A DNA stretch of 64,000 nt from Ruditapes philippinarum (taxonomy: Eukaryota), in contig NW_026865571.1 in the NCBI RefSeq assembly GCF_026571515.1, forward strand, positions 1 to 64,000. Reading direction: 5' to 3'. Below, in pieces: positions 3,820 through 53,784 of this stretch. The number at the start of each line of letters is the position of its first letter. Position 1 is the first letter of the stretch. The position numbers and the translations under genes are program-made. The notes below the pieces were generated by a model, which saw nothing but the letters and a program-made list of their open reading frames with translations, was not told where the DNA came from and searched no databases.

Positions 3820-6800
3820 ATATGACCTAGCTGCTGTTTTCTGGCAGCAGTATGGGATCAAATTTACCATAGACATTACCAAATTTGAACCAGAACAAGT
3901 CAGGTGAAGGTTAAAAGATTTTTATCACATGCTTTTCGGTGGTTTATAGAAATATATCAGTGTTATAAAACTGGTAATTTCACTGTTTGAAACAGTGAAA
4001 TTACCACTTTGATAATTTCACTGTTTTGAATTTAAGGTAGTACACCCCTAATGGGCACTATAAGGAATTGTAAATTTGACAACATAGGACAGTTATATGC
4101 CTTAAATGCCACCTGTATGCAAAATTTAAACAAAATTTACCGTGTGGTTTATGAGTTATAGACATTTTTATGAACTAAAACTTTGCCATTAGAAGGGACT
4201 TTTTCAGAAATGAGGAAACTCTAAATAATCTATAATATCATCATTATGAAAAATGTTTTCCTTTTGCTCATTGTTAAGAAATAAATAATGACATTTAGGT
4301 AACAAATTAAACAAGCAAAATGATTGTTTTTAAACGAAATGTTTTTAATATGTATAAAAATGTAACCCTACCCCACCCACTTTTAACACTAATTTGACCA
4401 TTTCCCTATGTAAAAAGCCTTATTTAAAATATCTCTAAAATTTTCCAAAATGAGGGGCTATTTTCAAAGTTTGCCTAAATTTTCTTTAATGTATATTGGT
4501 TGGTCTTGCAAAATATAAAATACTTTTACCGTTTAGTTTTTATTTTATTAAACTTTGAAAATATCTGGTATCATATTTGCTATTAAATTTGGCATTATTT
4601 AGTAAATAAATACCTACAATAATTATATAATTAAAATAAAACACTTTTTTCTTCCATAGGGGGTCTGAGAGATTAATAAAAAATGTTAAAAAGAAAAAAA
4701 AGAAAGAAAAAAAATTGCCCCTTCTGGGGTTTGAACCCACGCCCCCTCAGTTTCAATACACTTTACAGTGATTTTAGCCTATTTGAAATACTCTTCAAAG
4801 TGGAGACAGTGATTAGGGGTGTACTACCTTAAGCCCCTTACGTTGTTTTCAGTGAAATACCAGCGTGCACAATACTGGGTACCAACTTAATACGTGACGT
4901 CGTAAAATGACGTCACGTTGTATTATTATTTGGCGCGCTTTTCATTCCGTAATGTCTTTTTTAAAACGTTTCTTTGCATGTAATAAAAAGAAAATTTGTT
5001 TAGTTTAGTGTAAGATTGAAATATATTTCACCTTGTGAACACCAAAAGTTCATATTTCACTCGTGGCTGCGCCACTCGTGAAATATTCCTTTTGTTGCTC
5101 ACTCGGTGAAATATATTCCGATCTTACACTGAACTAAACAAATATCCTCTATGACTTCATATGAGCTGGCGCACTTATATCATTTCTGCCTTTTATGCCA
5201 TTATATTTACAAACAACATCTTCTAAAAAAATCTGCTCATTTCTTCAATGTAGAATTTAAATATGTGATCAAGTAAAAATGGCCTTATACCTATGGTTTC
5301 AATAAATGATTAAAGGTGAATATACACCAAATGTTCAAATTTAATAACCAATAGTGAGTACAATATTGACTTCATTAAAATAAGTGAGCTTTTGTAAGCT
5401 GTTACAAGAAATATATGACTTCAAACAAACAAAAATTATCAATACAAACTTGTAAAAGAAGGTAGACAACTCCTCTGGCAAACAATATTTTACTGCTGGA
5501 CTTCAGCTCAATAACTTTAGTTAGATCATCTATTGCTTTGGTATAGTGCTGTAATGCTATGTATGCCTGAAATATATTGTATCATTTAATCATCTAGACG
5601 TAGAAGAATGGGTGTGACTGCATTTCTCTGTGACAATTATTCTACATTATTATACATTGAATCTTATGGTCATTTGTCTCTTACTGCTGATTCAGAAATC
5701 ATTTGTGATAAGTAGTCTGCCACTTGACAGAGATGCTTTTTTCTGTATTTTACAACTGAATAAAGGCTGTTTCCCCTAGCCCAAAACAGGTATATTTTCC
5801 CATAAAAATGCTTATATTTTCCACTGAAATGCCCTGTGCACTTCTTCACCAGAACCATGACTTAACAGCAGCTGACTTATATCAGGTTATTGATAAATTT
5901 AATTGACTGAAAGACAGAAAGCTGTCCCTACAGATACATGTAGCCTCTATTATATAGCATGCATGTTAAATTGAATTAAAACTGAAAATTTTAAAAAAAA
6001 ATGTGGGTAAATTCCATTCTCAGTTATTGAAATGTATTTTGATTCCAGATTTTCCCACTTTTCTGATATATTGTGCTATATTTTTTCCCTATTAGAAAGC
6101 CACAGGTTGTTTTGAAAATTAAAACAAGAGGGCCATGATGGCCCTGAGGTCGCTCACCTGTATATAGGCCCCCCAACCCCCACCCCCCCCAACGTTGCAG
6201 AGCCAATTTAACCCAAGGGCTTTTATTTGCACAAACTTGGTAGACACCCATAAGAAGACGTTTCATGCTAAACATTTAAGCTCTAGCTCATTGGGCTTTT
6301 TAAAAGAAGATTTTTTTAAAGTTTTTACTATACACATATAGTTAAAAACAATGACACCCCTTGGGCCGGGCCAGTTTTGACCCCAGGGCTTTTATTTGAA
6401 CAAACTTTGTAGACACTTACTAGAAGATGTTTCATGCTTAATATCTAAACTCTAGCTATTTGGGTTTTTTCAAAGAAGATTTAAAGTTTTTGCTAAACAC
6501 ATATAAAGAAAATCAATGACCCCCGGGGCGGGGCCAATTTTGACCCCTGGGCTTGTATTTGAACAAACTTGGTAGACACCTATTAGAACATGTTTGATGC
6601 TCAATATCTTGGCCATAGCTCTTTGAGTTCTTTAAAAGAAGATATTTTAAGTTTTTACTATATGCATATAGGGAAAATCAATGACCCCCGGGGCGGGGCC
6701 AATTTTCACCCCAGGGCTTTTATTTGAACAAACTTGGTAGACACCCATTAGAACATGTTTCATGCTAAATATCTTAGCTCTAGCTCTTTGGGTTCTTTAA

Positions 6801-9800
6801 AAGAAGATTTTTTAAGTTTTTACTATATGCATATAGGGAAAATCAATGACCCCCCAGGGCGGGGCCAATTTTGACCCCAGGGCTTTTATTTGAACAAACT
6901 TGGTAGACACACACTAGAAGATGTTTCATGCCAAATATCTAAGCTCTAGCTCTTTGAGTTCTTTAAAAGAAGATTTTTAAGTTTTTACTATATGCATATA
7001 GGGAAAATCAATGACCCCCGGGGCGGGGCCAATTTTCACCCTAGGGCTTTTATTTGAACAAACTTAGTAGACACCCATTAGAAGATGTTTCATGCCAAAT
7101 ATCTAAGCTCTAGCTCTTTGAGTTCTTTAAAAGAAGATTTTTTAAGTTTTTACTATATGCATATAGGGAAAATCAATGACCCCCCGGGGCGGGGCCAATT
7201 TTCACCCCAGGGCTTTTATTTGAACAAACTTGGTAGACACCCATTAGAACATGTTTCATGCTAAATATCTTAGCTCTAGCTCTTTGGGTTCTTTAAAAGA
7301 AGATTTTTTAAGTTTTTACTATATGCATATAGGGAAAATCAATGACCCCCCGGGGCGGGGCCAATTTTGACCCCAGGGCTTTTATTTGAACAAACTTGAT
7401 AGACACTCACTAGAAGATGTTTCATGCCAAATATCTAAGCTCTAGCTCTTATGGTTTTTTAAAAGAAGATATTTAAAGTTTTTTCTTTCGGTTGCCATGG
7501 CAACCAGAGTTTTGCATGGAATTAAATTCTTTGAACAATTTTTAAAGGTGACCACCAAAGGAACATTCCTGTGAAGTTTGGATGAAATTGGCTTAGTGGT
7601 TTATGAGGAGATGTCATTTAAAGTAAAAGTTTACGGACGGACGGCCGGACGACGGACGGACGGACGCCGGGCGAAAAGCGATCACAAAAGCTCACCCTGT
7701 CACTTTGTGACAGGTGAGCAAAAAAAATCACTGCTTGAGGAGAACTTGGTAATCACTTTGGTTATCCAGGAAAGCCGGTCAGGTGGATCAACCACCGAGA
7801 TATTACCAGAAAAGAGTTAAAATCATCACATAAAAACACAGAAAGAAAAACAAGCAAACACAGAAAATAGTGATGCACTACATTGCATATGTCTGCACAT
7901 AAAAACCATTTTTACCAAACAATAAAATCTTTAAAAAAAAACCTTCATTATTAATATATAAATATTGACACTGTTAGCAGACGAAGGATGGCTTACCTCT
8001 GCTCTTCTTTCATAGGCTTGTATAAATTTGTTATCTCTTTCTATTGTTTCTGTAAAGTCATCTATTGCTTTGTCAGCATTATTCTGGTCCTGTGTTAAAA
8101 TGGAAATGAAATTTACATTATCAAAACAACAACAACAACAAAACCTAAAATACTAGCATACACACAAAAAAAAAAATGTACAATACAATAGCTATCATGT
8201 TACTTAGTGTCATCAATGGACCATGGTCCCATTCTAACACTGTTTGTTAATAACATTGCTTATTCCATTTTGACTGCTTTTGCTGAAGTTTATGTTACTC
8301 CAAAACTAATAGTAGTACTCGTATAATTGCTTTCTGGCTAAAGAAGACCTCGCAGAATTATTCTATGCATTATTTAAGGCACAAATGGACACCAGATTAA
8401 AACAGGAGACTGTCAGACTAGCTGGACAGCTTTCTGACATGAAAGAAGTTAAAATTCCCGTGCATGATTCCAACCCAAAACTATATAATGAAACATTGCA
8501 GTACTTTTTTTGGTTTATATAGAATTTATTTTAGTTTGATTGTGTAGGAAGTTATAAGCTTATTGACACTCCTTCGAATTTGGAACCAACCAGCACTGAG
8601 CAATGAGTGAAGTTTCTTGCTCAAGAAAACAACAACTTGCCCTTGCTAACATATTGACTTAAATATCTCATTTTAAAAGAAAATATCATAATAAAGTTAT
8701 ACTGTAAGATTACCTTTAAACCTTTTCGTGAATAAGCCACACCTCTCATGAAATAAGCAGCAAGTGTATTTGGTCTGTTACCTATTAGGCCATCATAGGT
8801 ATCAATTGCTGCATCAATATTACCAGAGTTCAGTAACACAAGACCTAACCCTGAAATAAGAAACATATTTTATTAAAAATCATTTAAACAAAACATCTGT
8901 AAGTTTTAAATTAAGATTTCATTCCAAGATAAATCACAACAAAAGTGTAATCTATAGGGGACTGGAGGTCTTGGGTTTAGAAATTTTGTGTTTAGAATAA
9001 ATCAAAAGGGGAATTTAGCCTGTCACCAATGATACTAATAATTCTATGTAGTATATATTTCATTTTGCAAAACACAGATTAAATTAGCATTTAAAGGGTT
9101 TCATGCTAAAATTAAACAAGAGCTGTCGGTAGGACAGCAACGCTCGACTATTCTTAGTGCTTGATAGTAAAAGAGCCTTGATAATGTAAAATTTTCTATG
9201 TTAACAAAAGGGCCAAATTTTCCTTTAAATCAATGTTACTGTTATAGGCTTTGAAGAGAGTCCTATTATGCTCTAAAATAAGAGTATAAAATTTCAACTT
9301 GTTTCAAAGCCAGATGTCAATAGTATATGAAAAAATCTGAGGTGGTATGCAAACTTTAACGTAAATTGTAAGTCAGAAAAGGGGTACAATTCTGTCAAAA
9401 TACTTGATACAGTTATCTCCTCCTGTCTACAGGATAGGGTCATGATTGTGAACAAGTGTGCAAAGTTTCAAAGCCATATGTCAATTGACTTTGAAAATAT
9501 TTGAGGTATTACAAAAACTTTAACATAAGTGGTTACGCCGACGCTCAGGTGACTACAATAGCTCTACTTATTCTTATCGAATAGTCGGGCTAAAAAATAT
9601 AGTGAGGGGAACTTTTTCAAAAAATAGGAGAAAAACATATATTCAATGGTAAGAGGTATGGACACAAATTACAGGCTCATAAACATGAAATGAGGGCCCA
9701 GTATCTTTTGTATAAAATCCTACAAATCTCATACTTTTCTTTTTCATAATATTCAACATGGCACTAAAATAATCATATCATCTAATATAGACATAAATGA

Positions 9801-44740: not shown

Positions 44741-47700
44741 ATGGCAGGACCAGTTATTAAATTTACGGAACGAAAGCGTGAAAAGTTTGCAAAATTTGTT
44801 GGATTTACGCAGTGGGTTTGCATTTTACCATCTTTTATGTGTCTGGTGTTAGCATTATATGTACAGTTAGTGATAGAAGCTAAAATAAATTTCATTGAAG
44901 ACTACAACGGCACGATACTTCCTGGATTCCTTCTATTTTGTGGATTTTTCGGATTGTTTTCGCACATTTTATGTGGTAAAGTAGCTTATACCAACAGGTT
45001 ACCTGAAAAAAGGGAGAAATGGATGAAATTTTTGCTTCCTGCGCTAATTGTAACATTCGTCATATTCTTAGCTGAATTAATTTCTGGAGTAATGTGTTTT
45101 GCGCATATTCAAAATTTGGAGGAATCATTTCAATCCGGCATTAAGGCTGCGATGTCTGCTTACAAGGATGATGCGACAACTAAGGAGGAACTTGACATAT
45201 TGCAGTTCGAGTATGAATGTTGTGGTAGCAAGGATTATATGGATTGGTTTTCTGTTGCCTGGATTCATCCCGACTTCAGGAGTACAAAGTCACGAACAAG
45301 GTATACATGTATTTTTATGAAAACAGTGCATTTGTTTCCAAATACCGTAGGTGTATGTGTAGGCAAGATTTTAGTTTATGTAATATTCGACTTAAAAGTA
45401 GCCTTATATTGAATTATAAAATATCTATCTATCGATCGATCGATCGATCTCTATCGATCGATCTATAAAATATAAAATGACAAATGATCTTAATTGGCAA
45501 ACCCTTGAACAGCGTCGAAACATCATTGCTTTAACCTACTTGTATAAAATCCAAAACAACATTGTTTTTGTTGACCACCAACACCTTACTCAAACTACTC
45601 GAGGACACAATATCATCAAAATTCTTTCTTTCCTAGGAGATACGTCTTTGGAATAGCCTTCCTGTCTAGCCCCAGTTTAAACATCTTTACTGAGAGGCTT
45701 GACCCATTCTATGAATTCTAAATCGCACACTATGTCTTTTAAATTAATAGTCTTGTAGAACTTTTATTTTTTTAACTTTTTAAATTTGCATATCAATAAT
45801 TTCTTTTATTAACAAATCAGAATTTATTGTTAAGCAGTATGATGAATATGTAGATGTACATGCAACAAAATATCGACATTAATTGTAACAATATAGAAAA
45901 AATATCGAGATGAATCAGTACTGTAAACAAACAGTCGCCAATAAAATATATAAATAAAATAGTTTACATAAATATATTATAATTAACTATAGAAAATGAT
46001 AATAATTATGCTGAGCGCTATTGGCTGAAACAAAGTTTTTGCCCATAAAGACAGTGTGTTTTATTAAGATTACATGATCTTTACTCATTATTCAGCGACT
46101 TAAACAAGACGGTACTTGACAGCGTCCCATTTAGCTGTTGTAATCCACAAACTTTGCGCCCGTGCATTCAACATCACGTGCACGACAATAACCTACACTT
46201 CAACTACGACTATCGAAAGGAAACAACACTGTATAGCAACGGATGTACGGAAAAACTGATGTCGTTTTACAAACATTCAGTTCTGATGGTAGCTGGTGGA
46301 CTGGTTTTTATCCTGTCAAGTATAGAGGTAGGTACCAAACGTTTATCCTGTCAAGTATAGAGGTAGGTACCAAACATTTTTCTTATATATACTAACAGGA
46401 TATTTTTAATAACAAATATAATATATAATTGACTGATATAGCACCATATTTCAGAGGCAACATTAAATAATAAGAGTTAAATATATGGAATTTTATCATG
46501 TGAAGTGGTAATGATATCCATATTAAAAAAAAAGAAACACACACCTTTTTATTTAATTTTGCTACGCAGTTGCAATTGTACAGCGCGCAGCAATACATTA
46601 ATTAAAATTAGGTGCGGGACACAGTTAGAATCCAATACACAATTCATTACAGTCATCTTGAACTTTCTTTTAAAAACATAACCAGACAATTTCCGATGGT
46701 GAAATGCATTGCTGAAGCTACTGTCTGCAACAGAGAAACATCTGAGAAAGAAGTTCAAAAGAGAAATAGAGGATATTCAAGTTTTTTCTATAAATGCAAT
46801 ATTGCCGCTGGATAACAATTGTATATTAATGTTTATTTCACGTGAATAATTTGTATAAAGAACTGCATGTTCGTCTTTTTTTAAACATGAATTGCATGTG
46901 ACTTTTCTTTACAGTTTGAGCTGATTATATGTATGCGGTTACTTCAAACGGCAGTGGCGTCATCGCTAGAGTCCTATGATCAAGAAGGTCCATCATATGG
47001 GTATCTGTTCGGTAATCCGCAGAAAACAGGTAAATAAAAAAATAGAATCTACTATCCTTTTTTAAATTCTTAATTCGACAAACCTATTTGAGCTAAACTT
47101 TGATTAGAACTGAAATTGCAAGTTGGAGTTTGAGACGATATTTGTTTTGAGTGAATATATTATATACACATGTATCTCACAGAGAAGTGGGGAAAATTGT
47201 AACATTGTGAAAACAATAAGCGCGGGAAACATAAACTTGTTAATAAGATGACGTCAGACGATCAACGTTGCGGGAACAAAAATACAATTTTAGTGCTTAT
47301 ATATGAATCATTCTTGCATATTAGACAGAGCCGCGTTACCGCGGTAAACAGTTACCCTCGAGCTAGATATTCTGGTCTGTACCAACAGCCCCGGTATAAG
47401 ATATTTAACAAATAATACATGGCCTTAAGGGCAATATGCAAGTTTACGGACTGATTGGTCAGACTGAGGAAGGTATATGACCCGAAGCGCAGCTGAGGGA
47501 CATATACCTTCCGAGGTCTGTCCAACACACAGGCGCTAGTCACATAATCAAATATTTTACATAATCGGTCTATATATGTATATAAAGATATATCTTTATA
47601 TACATATATAGACCGATTATGTAAAATATTTGATTATGTGACTAGCGCCTGTGGTCCAACATGTCCGTAAACTTGCATTTAGCCCGAAAGGCCATGTTTT

Positions 47701-50700
47701 ATTGTCCCCCGCCTTTTCGAAGAAAAAAGGGGGATATAGTAATAGGCTCCGTCCGTCCGTCACACTTTCGTGTCCGGTCAATAACTTTGTCATTCATCAA
47801 AGGAATCTGAAATAACTTGGCACAAATGTTTGTTATAATAAGACGATGTGTCATGCGCATCAACCAGACCCCTTCCTCCAGGGTCAAGGTCGCACTTGCT
47901 CATTCAACGTCAACATTGTCCATTTGATGGTATACTTTGTGTCCGGTCCATAAATTTTTCATGGATCAAAGGATTTTGTAAATACTTGCCACAAATAGTC
48001 ACTATAATAAGACAATGTGTCGTGCGCAACACCTGCATCCCTACCTCCAAGTTCAAGGTCACACTTAGAGGTCAAAAGTTAACATAGTCTGTTTTAGGGT
48101 ATATTTATTGTCTGATCTAGAACTTCTTCGGTTTTTGAAATAACTAGGCACAAATAGTCACAATAAATAAGACAATATGTCAGGTACAACACCTGCACCC
48201 CTACCTCCAAGGTCAGGGTCACACTTAGAGGTCAAAGGTTAACAGTCTGTTATATGGTATATTTTGTGTTCAGTCCATAACCTTTTCATAGATCAAGGGA
48301 TTTTAAAAATACTTTGCACAAATAATCACATTAATAAGATGATATGTCAGGCGCAAAACATGGGTCCCTACCTCAAAGGTCACACTTAGAGGTCAAAGAT
48401 TGACATAGTCTGTTATAGGGTATATTTTTATGTCCGATCTATAACTTCTTCATAGTTCAAGGGATTTTGAAAATACTTGGCACAAATAGTAATAATAATA
48501 AGACGATATGTCATGCACAACACATGCACCCCTACCTCCAAGGTCAAGGTCACACTTAGAGGTCAAAGGTTAACATGATAGATTTTTAAATTCTGTGTTT
48601 CATTTTACTAGTTTTCTTTAATAAATTTATTGTTGCACTTGCAGATCTAGCATTGAAATAATTTTGGACTGAAAGTCCTGAGATTCATACCTCAATCTTT
48701 TGAAATAGCACAATTTTATGCTTCATATAAAACTTCCCCGAGGCGGGGGACGTTGGTAACTCTGTTACAAATTCTTATTTGTTATATTATACCGAATCTA
48801 AATCATTTTATCCCTTTTGTTGCTGACATTTTAACTATAATTTGCTTTCAAATAATAATTTATTTGTTAAGTGTGTGAAATATCTCAAACCCTAGTCGGA
48901 TTTATTATTATTATTTTCAAGCGATACAGAAAAAAAATCATGCTCTTCTTTTGTTATTCATTTTTTGTTAATCAAATTGAACAGGCAAAAAAACCCGAAA
49001 TTTAAGATTTTAAATGACGTCATCCAGGCAATATAAGAATTATGGACCGCCCCGGTCTTAATGCGGTTTATGTACCGGGTGGTGGCATACTAAATATAGA
49101 AAGACGTATGCAAATGAAATGTAATATATAGAGGATATTGAATGAGTGTAAGTTCAATACTGAATTTATTGCACGAGTTGAATAAAATTATATTATGCGA
49201 GCCTCTGGCGAGCATACTATTATTTCATTCCACGAGTGCAATAAATTCAGTAATGAACTTACACGAATTTAATATTCTACTTATCACACACCCAAAATAA
49301 AGATCGTTTAAAGTGAAATAAGAGTCATTTTTCATTGACGCGCCTATAGTATAACGCTAACATTTAGCGCGTCTTTACACTATGTTTGCATAACGCTAAT
49401 GACGTCACGTCAAAATATATGCTCTGCCGTGCAATACCCTATTTACGGAGTCGCAAAATCGGCACGGATGTTTGATAAATAAGATTTATCACGTACACGT
49501 GCCGCTTTTGCGAATCCGTAAAAATGGTATTGCACGGCCGTGCATATATTTTGACGTTATGTCATTTGCGTTATACAAACCTACGTAATTGTTAGTTACA
49601 TTATAAGCGCGTCAATGATAATACGATTTTTTTCGCTTTCAACGGTAAATTTATTGTGGGTATATGATAAATAGATAGAGAATATTCAAGTTTTTCTATA
49701 AATACAGTATTTATTTTCATCGAGTTGTATGAAAATAAATATTTCATGAGTGGCGGTAGCCACGAGTGAAATATTATAATTTTCATACTACAAGATGAAA
49801 ATAAATCCTTGAAAACTTGATTTTTCTGTTTATTATATACATAGAGGATATTTGTTAAGTTCAGTGTAAGGTCGGAATATATTTCACCGAGTGAGCACCA
49901 AAAGGTATATTGAGCGAAATGTGAACTTTTGGTGTTCACGAGGTGAAATATATTTCGATCTTACACTAAACTAAACAAATTTTCTTTTTATTACATGCAA
50001 TCAAACGTTAAAAAGGACATTTTTACCTATTAATACACTTGTTACTATATATAGTAACAAATTGCCTATGATTTCAACTGATTATGAGTGTCACGTGACC
50101 TATTATGAGTTTGCGGCCCGGGGCCGAGAACTAGTTATCAGCCCGCAGAACATGTGCACGTGCACAAACTGAAACAATGACGTCATATTTTACGTCATGA
50201 AACAGTTAACTGTAAAAGTGAAAGTAGACTGACAGCACATCGTATTTAGTACAAACACATTTTTGTTACTGTTGAAATTTGAAGAAATAATACGACAAAT
50301 TCAATCCGAAAAAAAAAGAAAATAAAACTTGCTTCTTTGAACACACAAACAGTAAACATCTCCGTACAGAACACAAGAATTTCAACCAAAGAACTTCAAA
50401 GTAGATTTCTATTTGTTGTTGTTGTTTTTTTTTCTTTTTTAAAAATGCTACTATTAGATCTACCAAGTGTCAGAGTAGGGCCGGAAGGTGATAATCGGCC
50501 CTGAATGAATAATGGCCCTCGGGCTAAAGCCCTCGGGTCCATTATTCATTTTGCGGGCCGATTATCACCTTCCTGCCCTCTCCTGCCGTGTATTAACCTC
50601 TTATTAATACACTTGTTACTATATATAGTAACAAAATCGCCTATGATTTCAACTGATTATGAGTGTCACGTGACCTATTATGAGTTTGCGGCCCGGGGCC

Positions 50701-51053
50701 GAGAACTAGTTATCAGCCCGCAGAACATGTGCACGTGCACAAACTGAAACACTGACGTCATATTTTACGTCATCAAACAGTTAACTGTAAAAGTGAAAGT
50801 AGGTTGTCAGCACGAATCGCTTTATTTCTATTATGAGAGCTTAAGCGTATTTAGTACAAACACAATTTTGTTACTATTGAAAATTGAAGAAATAATACGA
50901 CAAATTCATTCCGAAAAAAATGAAAATAAAACTTGCTTCTTGATTCTACTGCTTTGAACACACAAACAGTAGATTCTAAACGTCTCTGTACAGAACAGTA
51001 GAAGAGTAGACAAGAATTTCAACGAAAGAACTTCAAAGTATTTGTTGTTGTTG

Positions 51054-51084
<31 letters not shown>

Positions 51085-53784
51085 TGCTACTTTTATATAG
51101 ATCTACCAAGTGTATTAAAGACATTAATACACGTCAGAGTAGGGCCGGAAGGTGATAATCGGCCCTGAATGAATAATGGCCCTCGGGCTAAAGCCCTCGG
51201 GTCCATTATTCATTTTGCGGGCCGATTATCACCCTCCGGCCCTCTCCTGCCGTGTATTAACCTCTTAATAATAAATGAATAGCGCGCCAAATAATTATAC
51301 AACGTGACGTCATTTACGACGTCACGTTATTAAGTTGGTTTCCAGTACTGTGTACGCTGGTATTTCACTGAAACAACGTGAGGGGCTTAAATTCAAAACA
51401 AATTGATAATTTCACTGTTTCAAACAGTGAAATTATCAGTTTTAATTCACTGATATATTTCTATAAACCATCGAAAAGCATGTAATAAATTTTTCTCTTC
51501 TTTTTTTTAACATCTCATTTTTGTATATTGGCTGAATATTTAGCAGAAAGTAGTCCGGCAAGACACCAGTGAAAATACGGCAAATGAAAATACGCATTTT
51601 ATTTCATCAACATTTCTCAATATTTCATTGATATAAAATAAATAGAGGATTTCTGGTGTTCACGAATGAAATATTTTAATCTTACATGCAAAACAAATAA
51701 ATTATGCTATTTAAGTGATTTTAAGTATTTTTTTACTGATTTTGTCGCGTAACATCGCGCATTCTCCTTTGTGGCGTCATCACATCATGACGTCACATCA
51801 TCAATTTTGAAATATAGTTCTGTTAAACTTTCTTTATTTCATGCTTTCCAGTGTTTTATTGTAATATATCAGATGATTATATTCTGAAAAACCACTAGTG
51901 AAATTTATAAAATATAATTTTCACTGTAGCCGGACTATATCTGAATGCGGATGAAAAGAAAATCATAACTAAATGGAATAACAGGCAAAAATAAATGCCG
52001 TCGTACGTAAATTTTGCTTCTTTAGGAAAAGTAAGTCGAACTCACCATAAATCATGTTAAAAATGTAACAAAATTAGAGAAATTTAACAGAACTGTATTT
52101 CAAAATTGATGACGTGACGTCATGATATGATGACGTCACAAAAGAGAATGCGCGACGTTACGCGGTAAAATCAGTAAAAAAAATACTTAAAATCACTTAA
52201 AAAACATTAAATAAATAGAAAATTTATTTGTTTTACATATAAGATTGAAATATATTTCATTCGTGAGCACCAGCTATTATATTTTCACTCGTGGCTACGC
52301 CACTCGTGAAAATATTGCATCTGGTGTTCACTCAGTGAAATTATATTTCAATCTTACATGCAAAACAAACAAATATCCTCTATATATTTTTTTTTTACAT
52401 TTTTAACATGATGTATGATGACATGACTTTCTTTTCCTAAAGAAGCAAAATTTACGTAATGCGGCTTCTTTTTCTGCCTGTTATTCCATTTAGTTATGAT
52501 TTTCTTTTCATCCGCATTCAGATATAGTCCGGCTACAGTGAAAATTATATTTTATAAATTTCACTAGTGGTTTATCAGAATATAATCATCTGATATATGA
52601 CAGTAAAACACTGGAAAGCATTAAATAAAAAAATATATTCGTGTAGGTTCATTTCTGCATTTATTGAACGAGTTGAATAAAAATATATTGTTCGAGCCTT
52701 TGACTTACACTAATTAAACATCCTCTATATAAGCAACAACACATTAATCAATTAATATGCAAACTTACTTTATTTAATTACGTCATAAAAATAATGTTAA
52801 TACTATTAATACATTTATTATTTTTATCATGTTTGTGAAACTTTAGGCGCAGATTCAACTGGAGGAACGACGCTGCTTGATACGACAGGGGAGACCACTA
52901 CAGCGGATATCACGTTTAGTATGGAGGACGGAGAGTTTGACGAAGAACGTTACGTTAATTTGGATCCAGTTTACGAAAACGTTGGGCAGTTCGAAGTTGG
53001 AGCTGACGATGAACATATCTATAACGAAGGAGCTGTTGAAGGTTATCTTGCCGGAAAGTTTGCTCGATCAAAGGAAAGGTTTGAGCATCTTCAGGAAGGC
53101 GGATATGAGGCTCTACATCCAGCATACATGGCTCCAGGCATCCCTGTTGCCCCGCCGCCGCCACCGCTTCCTAATGTTAATTTCAACAGATCACCAACAA
53201 ATCTTCATGAAGTCCGGTCTAACTATGGAAGTTATTTGGCCATGGATTTTTCGAATTCGTCATGGGCAAAATATCTCCCCGCGACAGAGAAAGTACCAAA
53301 AAGATATAGAAAACACAACAAAGTTCGCGTAAAAAGGCATCCGTTTCCGAGCCCTAAACGTATGTCAAGCAGTCCAAAAGATACATCCGTTATAAATATG
53401 CGCCAAAGTAAATCACCATCTATATCTGGATCAGGTACTAGACAAAGGCATACAGAACCTGAACGCAGACGACTTTTAGATAGCAGTCCGCCTGATTTGC
53501 TATATAGATCTCCAAATAGATATCCAAATAGAGAGGAACATTTGCAAGAGCCACGACGTTCCCTTTTTGAACCTCATTGTTCATATAAACACAGTGCCAC
53601 TCAAATCTCTCCTAACAAGATCCTACCTTACGACCGGAATTCCAACATTTTCCCGAGCATGTTTAATTCCGTATATGGAAAACGAAAGTCTCCGCAAAAG
53701 AAGTCTCCAGATCGGCGCATTTCTCCTCAGAAAACAAGCTTCAAGTCCGGCGTTTCTTATAAATGTAATCATGCATATGATTAG
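44741..53784 (+). CDS. Peripherin-2/RDS/ROM1-like tetraspanin, paralog 2 (~614 aa, long tail)
   Basis: Exons 44741-45300, 46096-46327, 46915-47029, 52847-53784 (phases 2,0,1, same as paralog 1). LQFEYECCG..YMDWFSVAWI; SVPFSCCNPQTLRPCIQ; MRLLQTA..GYLF. Confidence 0.88.
46307..46375 (+). repeat. 35-bp tandem duplication spanning the exon-2 splice donor
   Basis: TTTATCCTGTCAAGTATAGAGGTAGGTACCAAAC at 46307-46340 and 46342-46375. Confidence 0.95.
47528..47653. mobile_element. 126-bp perfectly palindromic MITE with 8-bp TSD (P- or hAT-type)
   Basis: 63-bp arms with no spacer and no mismatch; CACAGG...CCTGTG termini; GTCCAACA at 47520-47527 and 47654-47661. Confidence 0.92.
47699..48780 (+). mobile_element. 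Non-autonomous Helentron (HINE-like) with ~160-180-bp tandem units
   Basis: Subterminal IR GTCCCCCGCC / GGCGGGGGAC; (CCGT)n at ~47748; GGTCACACTTAGAGGTCAAA recurs at ~48057, 48217, 48378, 48548; 3' hairpin GTAAC-TCT-GTTAC; T-run insertion site. Confidence 0.82.
50028..51265 (-). mobile_element. Head-to-tail dimer of a Crypton-like hairpin element nested in another hairpin element
   Basis: Units 50028-50601 and 50602-51265 both end GTATTAACCTCT and are diverged by indels; they split the 49841-51490 element. Confidence 0.7.

Follow-up and report, generated by a model that had tools for sequence, protein, structure and literature searches.

How did one intron of a tetraspanin gene in Ruditapes philippinarum come to consist mostly of small mobile elements, and how do such elements insert? 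The window analysed here is a stretch of 64,000 nt (assembly GCF_026571515.1, contig NW_026865571.1, positions 1 to 64,000, forward strand). Its tetraspanin gene hosts an intron of 5,817 bp at 47030-52846 (GT at 47030, AG at 52846, in frame with the flanking exons), and Pfam Tetraspanin matches were obtained on two exons, at 44744 and 46049. The original prediction had described in this intron a head-to-tail train of hairpin elements, built by recombination aimed at the ends of resident elements and reminiscent of integron cassette arrays. The feature is real, but it was wrongly parsed. Mapping indicates that the intron is filled by about ten small mobile elements, mostly nested and not placed end to end. 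Our reading, to which we assign a probability of roughly 0.6, is that the hairpin elements are gene-less relatives sharing their ends with DUF3504 recombinase transposons, and that a single strand exchange inserts them as folded single-stranded circles.

Mobile elements form a nested pile in the intron

Element boundaries in the intron were set by comparison with intact copies at other genomic loci, and this comparison ruled out a head-to-tail train. The features were as follows.

47030-52846 (+): host intron of the tetraspanin gene, GT/AG in frame, with Pfam Tetraspanin on the exons
47324-47404 (-): J, a remnant, namely the outer hairpin arm of another high-copy hairpin family (1,524 candidates, 19 other copies opened), head-to-head with I
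47405-49127 (+): I, a hairpin element, 515 bp when intact, split by X and a Helentron-like element; A targeted its 3' end, and 24 other copies end at the same base
47528-47653 (unstranded): X, a perfect 126-bp palindrome with an 8-bp target duplication, not a Crypton; presumably a hAT-type miniature inverted-repeat transposable element (MITE), given the length of the duplication
47699-48774 (unstranded): element with a T^T insertion, a subterminal inverted repeat, a GTCC microsatellite and five tandem units of 164-169 bp, which we take to be Helentron/DINE-like on these features
49129-49479 (+): A, a 351-bp non-autonomous element, head-to-tail after I, 95% identical to other copies
49258-49293 (+): example of an internal complement, here to the end-start junction of A itself, at the base of the 5' hairpin
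49485-49675 (-): 3' part of H, an A-like element, tail-to-tail with A across 5 bp
49676-51642 (+): B (49676-49841 and 51490-51642), in H beside H's internal junction copy, holding C; intact copies are of about 398 bp
49842-51489 (+): C (49842-50029 and 51268-51489), of a 442-bp family, in B without duplication, holding D-D
50030-51267 (-): D-D, a head-to-tail dimer (50030-50603 and 50604-51267) of a family of about 660 bp, in C without duplication
51643-52629 (+): F (51643-51832 and 52383-52629), a copy of the E family carrying a hairpin deletion, head-to-tail behind B, holding E
51833-52382 (-): E, a complete 550-bp copy inside F, a member of its own family, in opposite orientation (93% over 549 bp)
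52630-52727 (-): 5' part of H, comprising the start and a partly deleted hairpin

The pile runs from the J remnant (-) through I (+), with X and the Helentron-like element inside, to A (+), a 5-bp gap and H (-). H encloses B (+) and then F (+), B encloses C, C encloses the D-D dimer (-), and F encloses E (-). Nesting is up to four deep (H, B, C, D-D; also H, F, E), and the true end-to-start joins are I to A, B to F and D to D. The start motifs predicted at 49128, 49675, 49841 and 51642 are all present. Two of them do lie where the preceding unit ends (49128, after I; 51642, after B), whereas 49675 falls inside H and 49841 inside B; the join within D-D was missing from that list. The motifs predicted as reverse ends are also present, ending at 52383 and 52728, but they are the starts of E and H.

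Hairpin-element families account for 4,138 of the 5,817 bp (71%), compared with 3,478 of 370,000 bp (0.94%) of genome DNA sampled at fixed positions, in agreement with the view that elements of different families make up most of the intron. The predicted range, which left J outside, does not consist of hairpin elements throughout, as 47699-48774 belongs to a different class.

Empty sites supported the nesting: other copies of C run unbroken across the D site, other B copies across the C site, and other I copies across the sites of X and the Helentron-like element. Judged by these empty sites, target duplication is absent at C-in-B and D-in-C, and none is apparent at E-in-F and (B+F)-in-H. Insertions of the pile are flush and without duplication, as had been predicted, except X with its 8 bp. 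The B/C junction pattern was found once in the genome, at this locus, indicating that at least this part was not copied as a block and speaking against a single composite element.

Read ends accumulated at 49841 and 51489, both boundaries of C. When presence or absence in individuals was checked, reads and contigs were swamped by other copies (for example, joints 50027-51266 derive from other C copies), and contigs crossing pile junctions had fewer than 31 bases on one side. Two candidates were rejected: a long palindromic version of A (49129-49675) proved to be two elements tail-to-tail, and a TA target duplication for D was dropped because the right flanks of D are not TA-specific.

Element ends are shared with DUF3504 recombinase transposons

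A DUF3504 search of the genome gave 149 matches, and 30 loci were opened. Elements of 2.2-2.5 kb at loci L126/L128 and L138 resemble A and B at their starts and ends: the 2.17-kb L126 element is matched by A at either end, and the L138 element by B. A third coding family (L124 group) shows the same design. The L126 element has a 495-codon open frame, its sole open frame of at least 120 aa, and the recombinase gene runs against the start-to-end direction of the element, on the other strand. The protein matches DUF3504 (PF12012) and Phage_integrase (PF00589), and its model (mean predicted local distance difference test score, pLDDT, 86) has a Cre-like fold. It carries R244, H376-x-x-R379, H402 and Y411, which we take to be the catalytic R-H-R-(H)-Y residues. 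A sequence search of solved structures with the recombinase returned QRICH1 only, and its homologues come from molluscs and cnidarians. A special likeness of the L126 protein to integron integrase was considered and was not seen in the fold comparison. Residues 11-54 form a predicted small all-beta N-terminal domain ahead of the recombinase core, without a Pfam match.

The site-specific recombination proposed earlier is supported, with a tyrosine recombinase as the likely enzyme. A, H and B are almost certainly non-autonomous DUF3504 Cryptons; our confidence is lower for the other families, and C, D, E/F, I and J are provisionally grouped with Cryptons by design only. The putative CryptonA-type assignment is based on DUF3504 and was made without Repbase families. 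As in CryptonA, comparison of empty and filled sites revealed neither terminal inverted or direct repeats nor target duplication, and both ends are shared with a coding element for A/H and B. The 2.2-2.5-kb partners hold the recombinase frame only, without the reverse transcriptase and RNase H of DIRS elements, and the terminal inverted repeats plus target duplication of DDE-type MITEs are lacking in A-I and present in X only.

The hairpin of each family folded carries a complement of its own junction

We folded 15 families, four of them from metagenome contigs. In all 15, the base of the 5' hairpin carries the junction between the family's own end and start as its reverse complement. This internal complement varies together with the end sequence from family to family, always falling two bases short of the junction. 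Among unselected hairpin-bearing copies, it predicted the far end (at least 12 of 14 bases) in 38/53, compared with 3/53 upstream controls; 48 of 101 starts had no scorable hairpin and were dropped. In metagenome contigs, 33 of 44 loci were examined, and 17 had a hairpin behind the gene, six of which matched the far end at 13-14 of 14 bases, a count in which several belong to one family and which has no control. Separately, L367, a metagenome contig of another organism, has a head-to-tail end-start junction behind a Crypton gene.

The two strands of the hairpin are not equivalent. Tandem GA/GA mismatches occur on the start-to-end strand in 15/15 hairpins and TC/TC mismatches in 0/15, and the GA-bearing strand is antisense to the recombinase mRNA. 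Sheared GA pairs are stable in a folded strand. All 15 families share a sequence design that appears attC-like, with a predicted folded site across the circle junction and unpaired, strand-specific features. The stronger likeness to integrons lies in this predicted site inside each element, a feature absent from the original prediction.

One rival explanation gives the internal complement another task, as a splint joining the two ends of a copied strand; the circle would then be made double-stranded and inserted with strand bias, like bacterial SE elements. A splint role has been proposed for the internal complementary region of DIRS elements. The splint accounts for the kept spacer described below as well as for the internal complement, its layout parallels the DIRS region as far as the available part of the source describes it (PMC13465315), and SEs circularise one strand with tyrosine recombinases, according to the portion of that report at hand (PMC9345347). 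A splint should nevertheless match the junction exactly, yet the complement is two bases short in every family, and a 150-nt stem with strand-specific GA pairs would be superfluous. We regard this explanation as rather unlikely.

Target site and placement in the genome

The start motif occurred 13,805 times in the genome versus 591 times for the control. The first 100 listed occurrences were fetched, and 86 were real element starts: 79 free, four nested, two head-to-tail and one head-to-head. Head-to-tail joins (2/86) compared with 0.06 expected and nested insertions (4/86) with 1.0 expected, under a null model that weights random DNA by the target motif; the adjacency that had been predicted therefore exceeds chance genome-wide. 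The end-start junction motif was found 398 times, against 0 for the reversed control and about 81 expected from the target motif alone. By eye, 4 of 100 A ends were followed by a start. A relative lay within 1 kb upstream of 15/85 starts, compared with 11/370 random tiles.

A system aimed at resident termini and building ordered cassette arrays, as originally proposed, would explain the three end-to-start joins in the window, an A copy placed head-to-tail before the coding element in L126, and the union of different families at 4 of the 30 junction-motif loci opened. At the other loci, however, 8 were same-family joins and 7 were end-like sites within an element of the opposite strand; in 11, no element lay upstream. 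Together with the 79/86 free-standing starts and the mostly nested insertions of the window, this largely refutes terminus targeting as the main route, and as a full explanation it is most improbable. A residual preference remains: element ends are favoured some tens-fold, yet take only a few per cent of insertions.

The insertion flanks suggest where this preference comes from. Their logo gives A-A-T-A-W-A left of the site and T and A at +7 and +8 on the right; D and I flanks show the same pattern shifted by one base. The target is a short two-fold site, about AATAWA^N5 WTA, with two half-sites round a spacer of about 6 bp. Two half-sites flanking a spacer are usual for tyrosine recombinases. 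Where the original proposal had asked whether a junction logo shows a shared 4-7-bp crossover core, the logo gave this short two-fold target, with little information between the half-sites. It further implies a 4-nt gap between opposed ends at one site, and 16 of the 23 pattern hits had this gap. Since the 3' end of an element itself fits the left half-site, an insertion would leave a good target at its end, and we consider that ends are used as targets because they match the short motif.

The same evidence bears on the possibility that a rolling-circle (HUH) enzyme, for instance a Helitron or Replitron protein, or an IS200-like enzyme mobilises the small elements in trans. Hairpins, head-to-tail dimers, a one-strand signature, insertion without target duplication and the Helentron-like element in the same pile are all in keeping with it. 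Against it, tyrosine-recombinase elements have the same ends, both in this genome and in metagenome contigs, and the target has two half-sites with a 4-nt opposed register. We consider such an enzyme very unlikely.

Several other arrangements were observed. In family A2 (for example at L096, L097, L100, L117 and L024), opposite-strand insertions recur at a subterminal inverted end-like motif, about 36 bp from the 3' end (4/30 junction loci), and L109, L110 and L118 have opposite-strand insertions exactly at A's internal junction copy (3/30). C/E-type elements at L132 and L232 have received a coding element and a C copy at similar positions in their hairpin arms, without duplication. Other mixed piles of these families occur at L096 and at L021 (G000:C5395:8628-11991), the latter with about 13 segments in 3.4 kb.

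A proposed mechanism with one strand exchange

The element spacer and the target spacer are unrelated beyond about one base. We found the element's own spacer kept at at least 4 of 6 bases in 100/100 A starts listed (by eye), and 0/96 free A ends carried it. With unrelated spacers, two exchanges would put the target spacer into the start in about half of events, and this was seen in 0/100. Exchange of the start-to-end strand, the one that bears the GA pairs, gives a crossover at the spacer's left edge. The asymmetry of the junction would thus fit a single strand exchange as at integron attC.

These observations are difficult to reconcile with the classical Crypton model (Goodwin), in which a double-stranded circle is excised and re-inserted by two strand exchanges via a short terminal motif, the hairpin being a cruciform or a protein-binding array. 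This model is in line with the same-family dimers, which are common (8/30 junction loci), and with a 3' end resembling the target's left arm, as in CryptonF-1_cRei, for which the available text reports clean excisions (PMC9977147). It predicts spacer replacement and leaves the one-sided mismatches of 15/15 families unaccounted for; we judge it improbable.

We therefore return to the folded single-stranded circle. The DUF3504 recombinase would act in trans on gene-less elements. One strand would be copied out, and its joined ends would fold into an attC-like stem. Exchange of the folded strand would then take place at the left border of a spacer of about 6 bp, and replication or repair would resolve the resulting junction. 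Each insertion would leave its own end as a good left half-site before the old right half-site and add end-like sites inside. Because insertions supply new target sites, residents would attract newcomers, giving head-to-tail joins and nests without a dedicated targeting system. The cassette train is a by-product and not a new array system.

A number of results weigh against this mechanism. Neither a circle nor a single strand nor enzyme activity was observed; among the listed joints of reads placed on L126, no end-to-start joint indicative of free circles was found. Folding energy separates the two strands only slightly, and in family I it leans somewhat towards the other one. The L126 fold (Cre, E 3e-8; integron integrase, E 5e-5) is no closer to integron integrase than to Cre, and no coding partner for C, D, E/F, I or J was found among the 30 of 149 DUF3504 loci opened. 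With two head-to-tail cases in 86, numbers are low; both resemble dimers of a single family, and the library entry used to score one of them came from that very locus. In the tail-to-tail pattern, the reversed control gave 20 hits versus 23, so only the spacing is informative; seven four-base cases were opened, of which four were true pairs and three had one element only. The A/H gap in the window is 5 nt, and three right flanks in the window are one base off the logo. Finally, a simple attachment model yields just 0.2 to 6 piles of at least nine elements per genome and does not account for the local clustering.

Comparison with known systems

Integron cassettes and these elements would have in common a folded single-strand site that the circle junction completes, spacer bases left unpaired, selectivity for one strand and, by our reading, one exchange; in attC x attI recombination, one folded strand is exchanged and the junction is resolved by replication, according to the parts of these papers at hand (PMC3458562, PMC2727003). 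In contrast to cassettes, we found no attI platform, promoter or cargo genes, no GTTRRRY core and a dispersed low-specificity target, and the enzyme is no closer to IntI than to Cre. No integrase frame was found between 40 and 60 kb of the window, and the pile sits in a host intron. The predicted cassette-like array therefore keeps an integron-like flavour, but it lacks an attI-like platform or promoter, and its units stand in both orientations.

CryptonA elements likewise encode one DUF3504 tyrosine recombinase, lack terminal repeats and target duplication, and have abundant short derivatives (PMC3212892, PMC13465315). Animal Cryptons are described as lacking terminal repeats (Kojima and Jurka 2011, PMC3212892), and the available part of the 2026 Glomhopper paper does not mention hairpins or palindromes (PMC13465315). 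Whereas the accessible portions of these sources report no terminal structure for animal Cryptons, the elements here have a terminal hairpin, an internal junction complement, a two-fold target and a one-sided spacer.

CryptonF-1_cRei of Chlamydomonas, an active CryptonF for which a short-core model with rising copy number was put forward, resembles them in that one terminus is like the target motif and copy number rises. It differs in belonging to another Crypton group, in its 5-bp near-identical core and in its clean excisions, and no hairpin is reported in the part of the source at hand (PMC9977147). From excerpts, DIRS elements share an internal region complementary to the ends, although the elements here have no reverse transcriptase (PMC13465315), and bacterial SE elements share one-strand circularisation by a tyrosine recombinase but need four genes and a fixed target (PMC9345347). 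CryptonV (Kapitonov and Jurka 2012, via citation in PMC8869645) comprises animal Cryptons with target specificity, described there as microsatellite-specific. Starships use circles, as far as the excerpt goes (bioRxiv 10.64898/2026.09.21.753150).

In the literature searched, to which Repbase Reports, subscription papers and supplements (e.g. Additional file 1 of PMC3212892) did not belong, we found no account of a folded-junction Crypton design. Nor did that literature show the mode of animal Crypton movement. The design offers a concrete substrate (a folded strand of about 170 nt), a target motif and an intact enzyme gene, which makes the mechanism testable at the bench. Single-strand site-specific recombination is known from integrons and phage CTX. 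If our reading is true, it also operates in animal genomes, on at least about 16,000 copies in this one, and it would account for nested repeat piles in mollusc introns. We hold the chances to be about even for the wider proposal that animal CryptonA take the integron route, with a strand folded over its own circle junction (attC-like, with a 2-nt bulge and sheared GA pairs), a single exchange, and self-seeding mixed-family stacks as a eukaryotic counterpart of attC clusters without a platform.

Other features of the window

Elsewhere in the window, a C-family copy at 3921-5151 (-) is split by an element of about 790 bp with inverted ends of about 35 bp (4037-4828), and a lone 32-bp start of family B lies at 46767-46798, in the preceding intron. 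At 6202-7483, 166-bp units form a second tandem array close to a GACG microsatellite, presumably Helentron-like as well. Palindromes of TGACGTCA, which we take to be CRE-like, occur at 49399, 50178, 50753, 51305, 51787 and 52109-52138, in the bodies of several unrelated families. The last tetraspanin exon (52847-53784) encodes a low-complexity tail of about 310 residues without a Pfam match.

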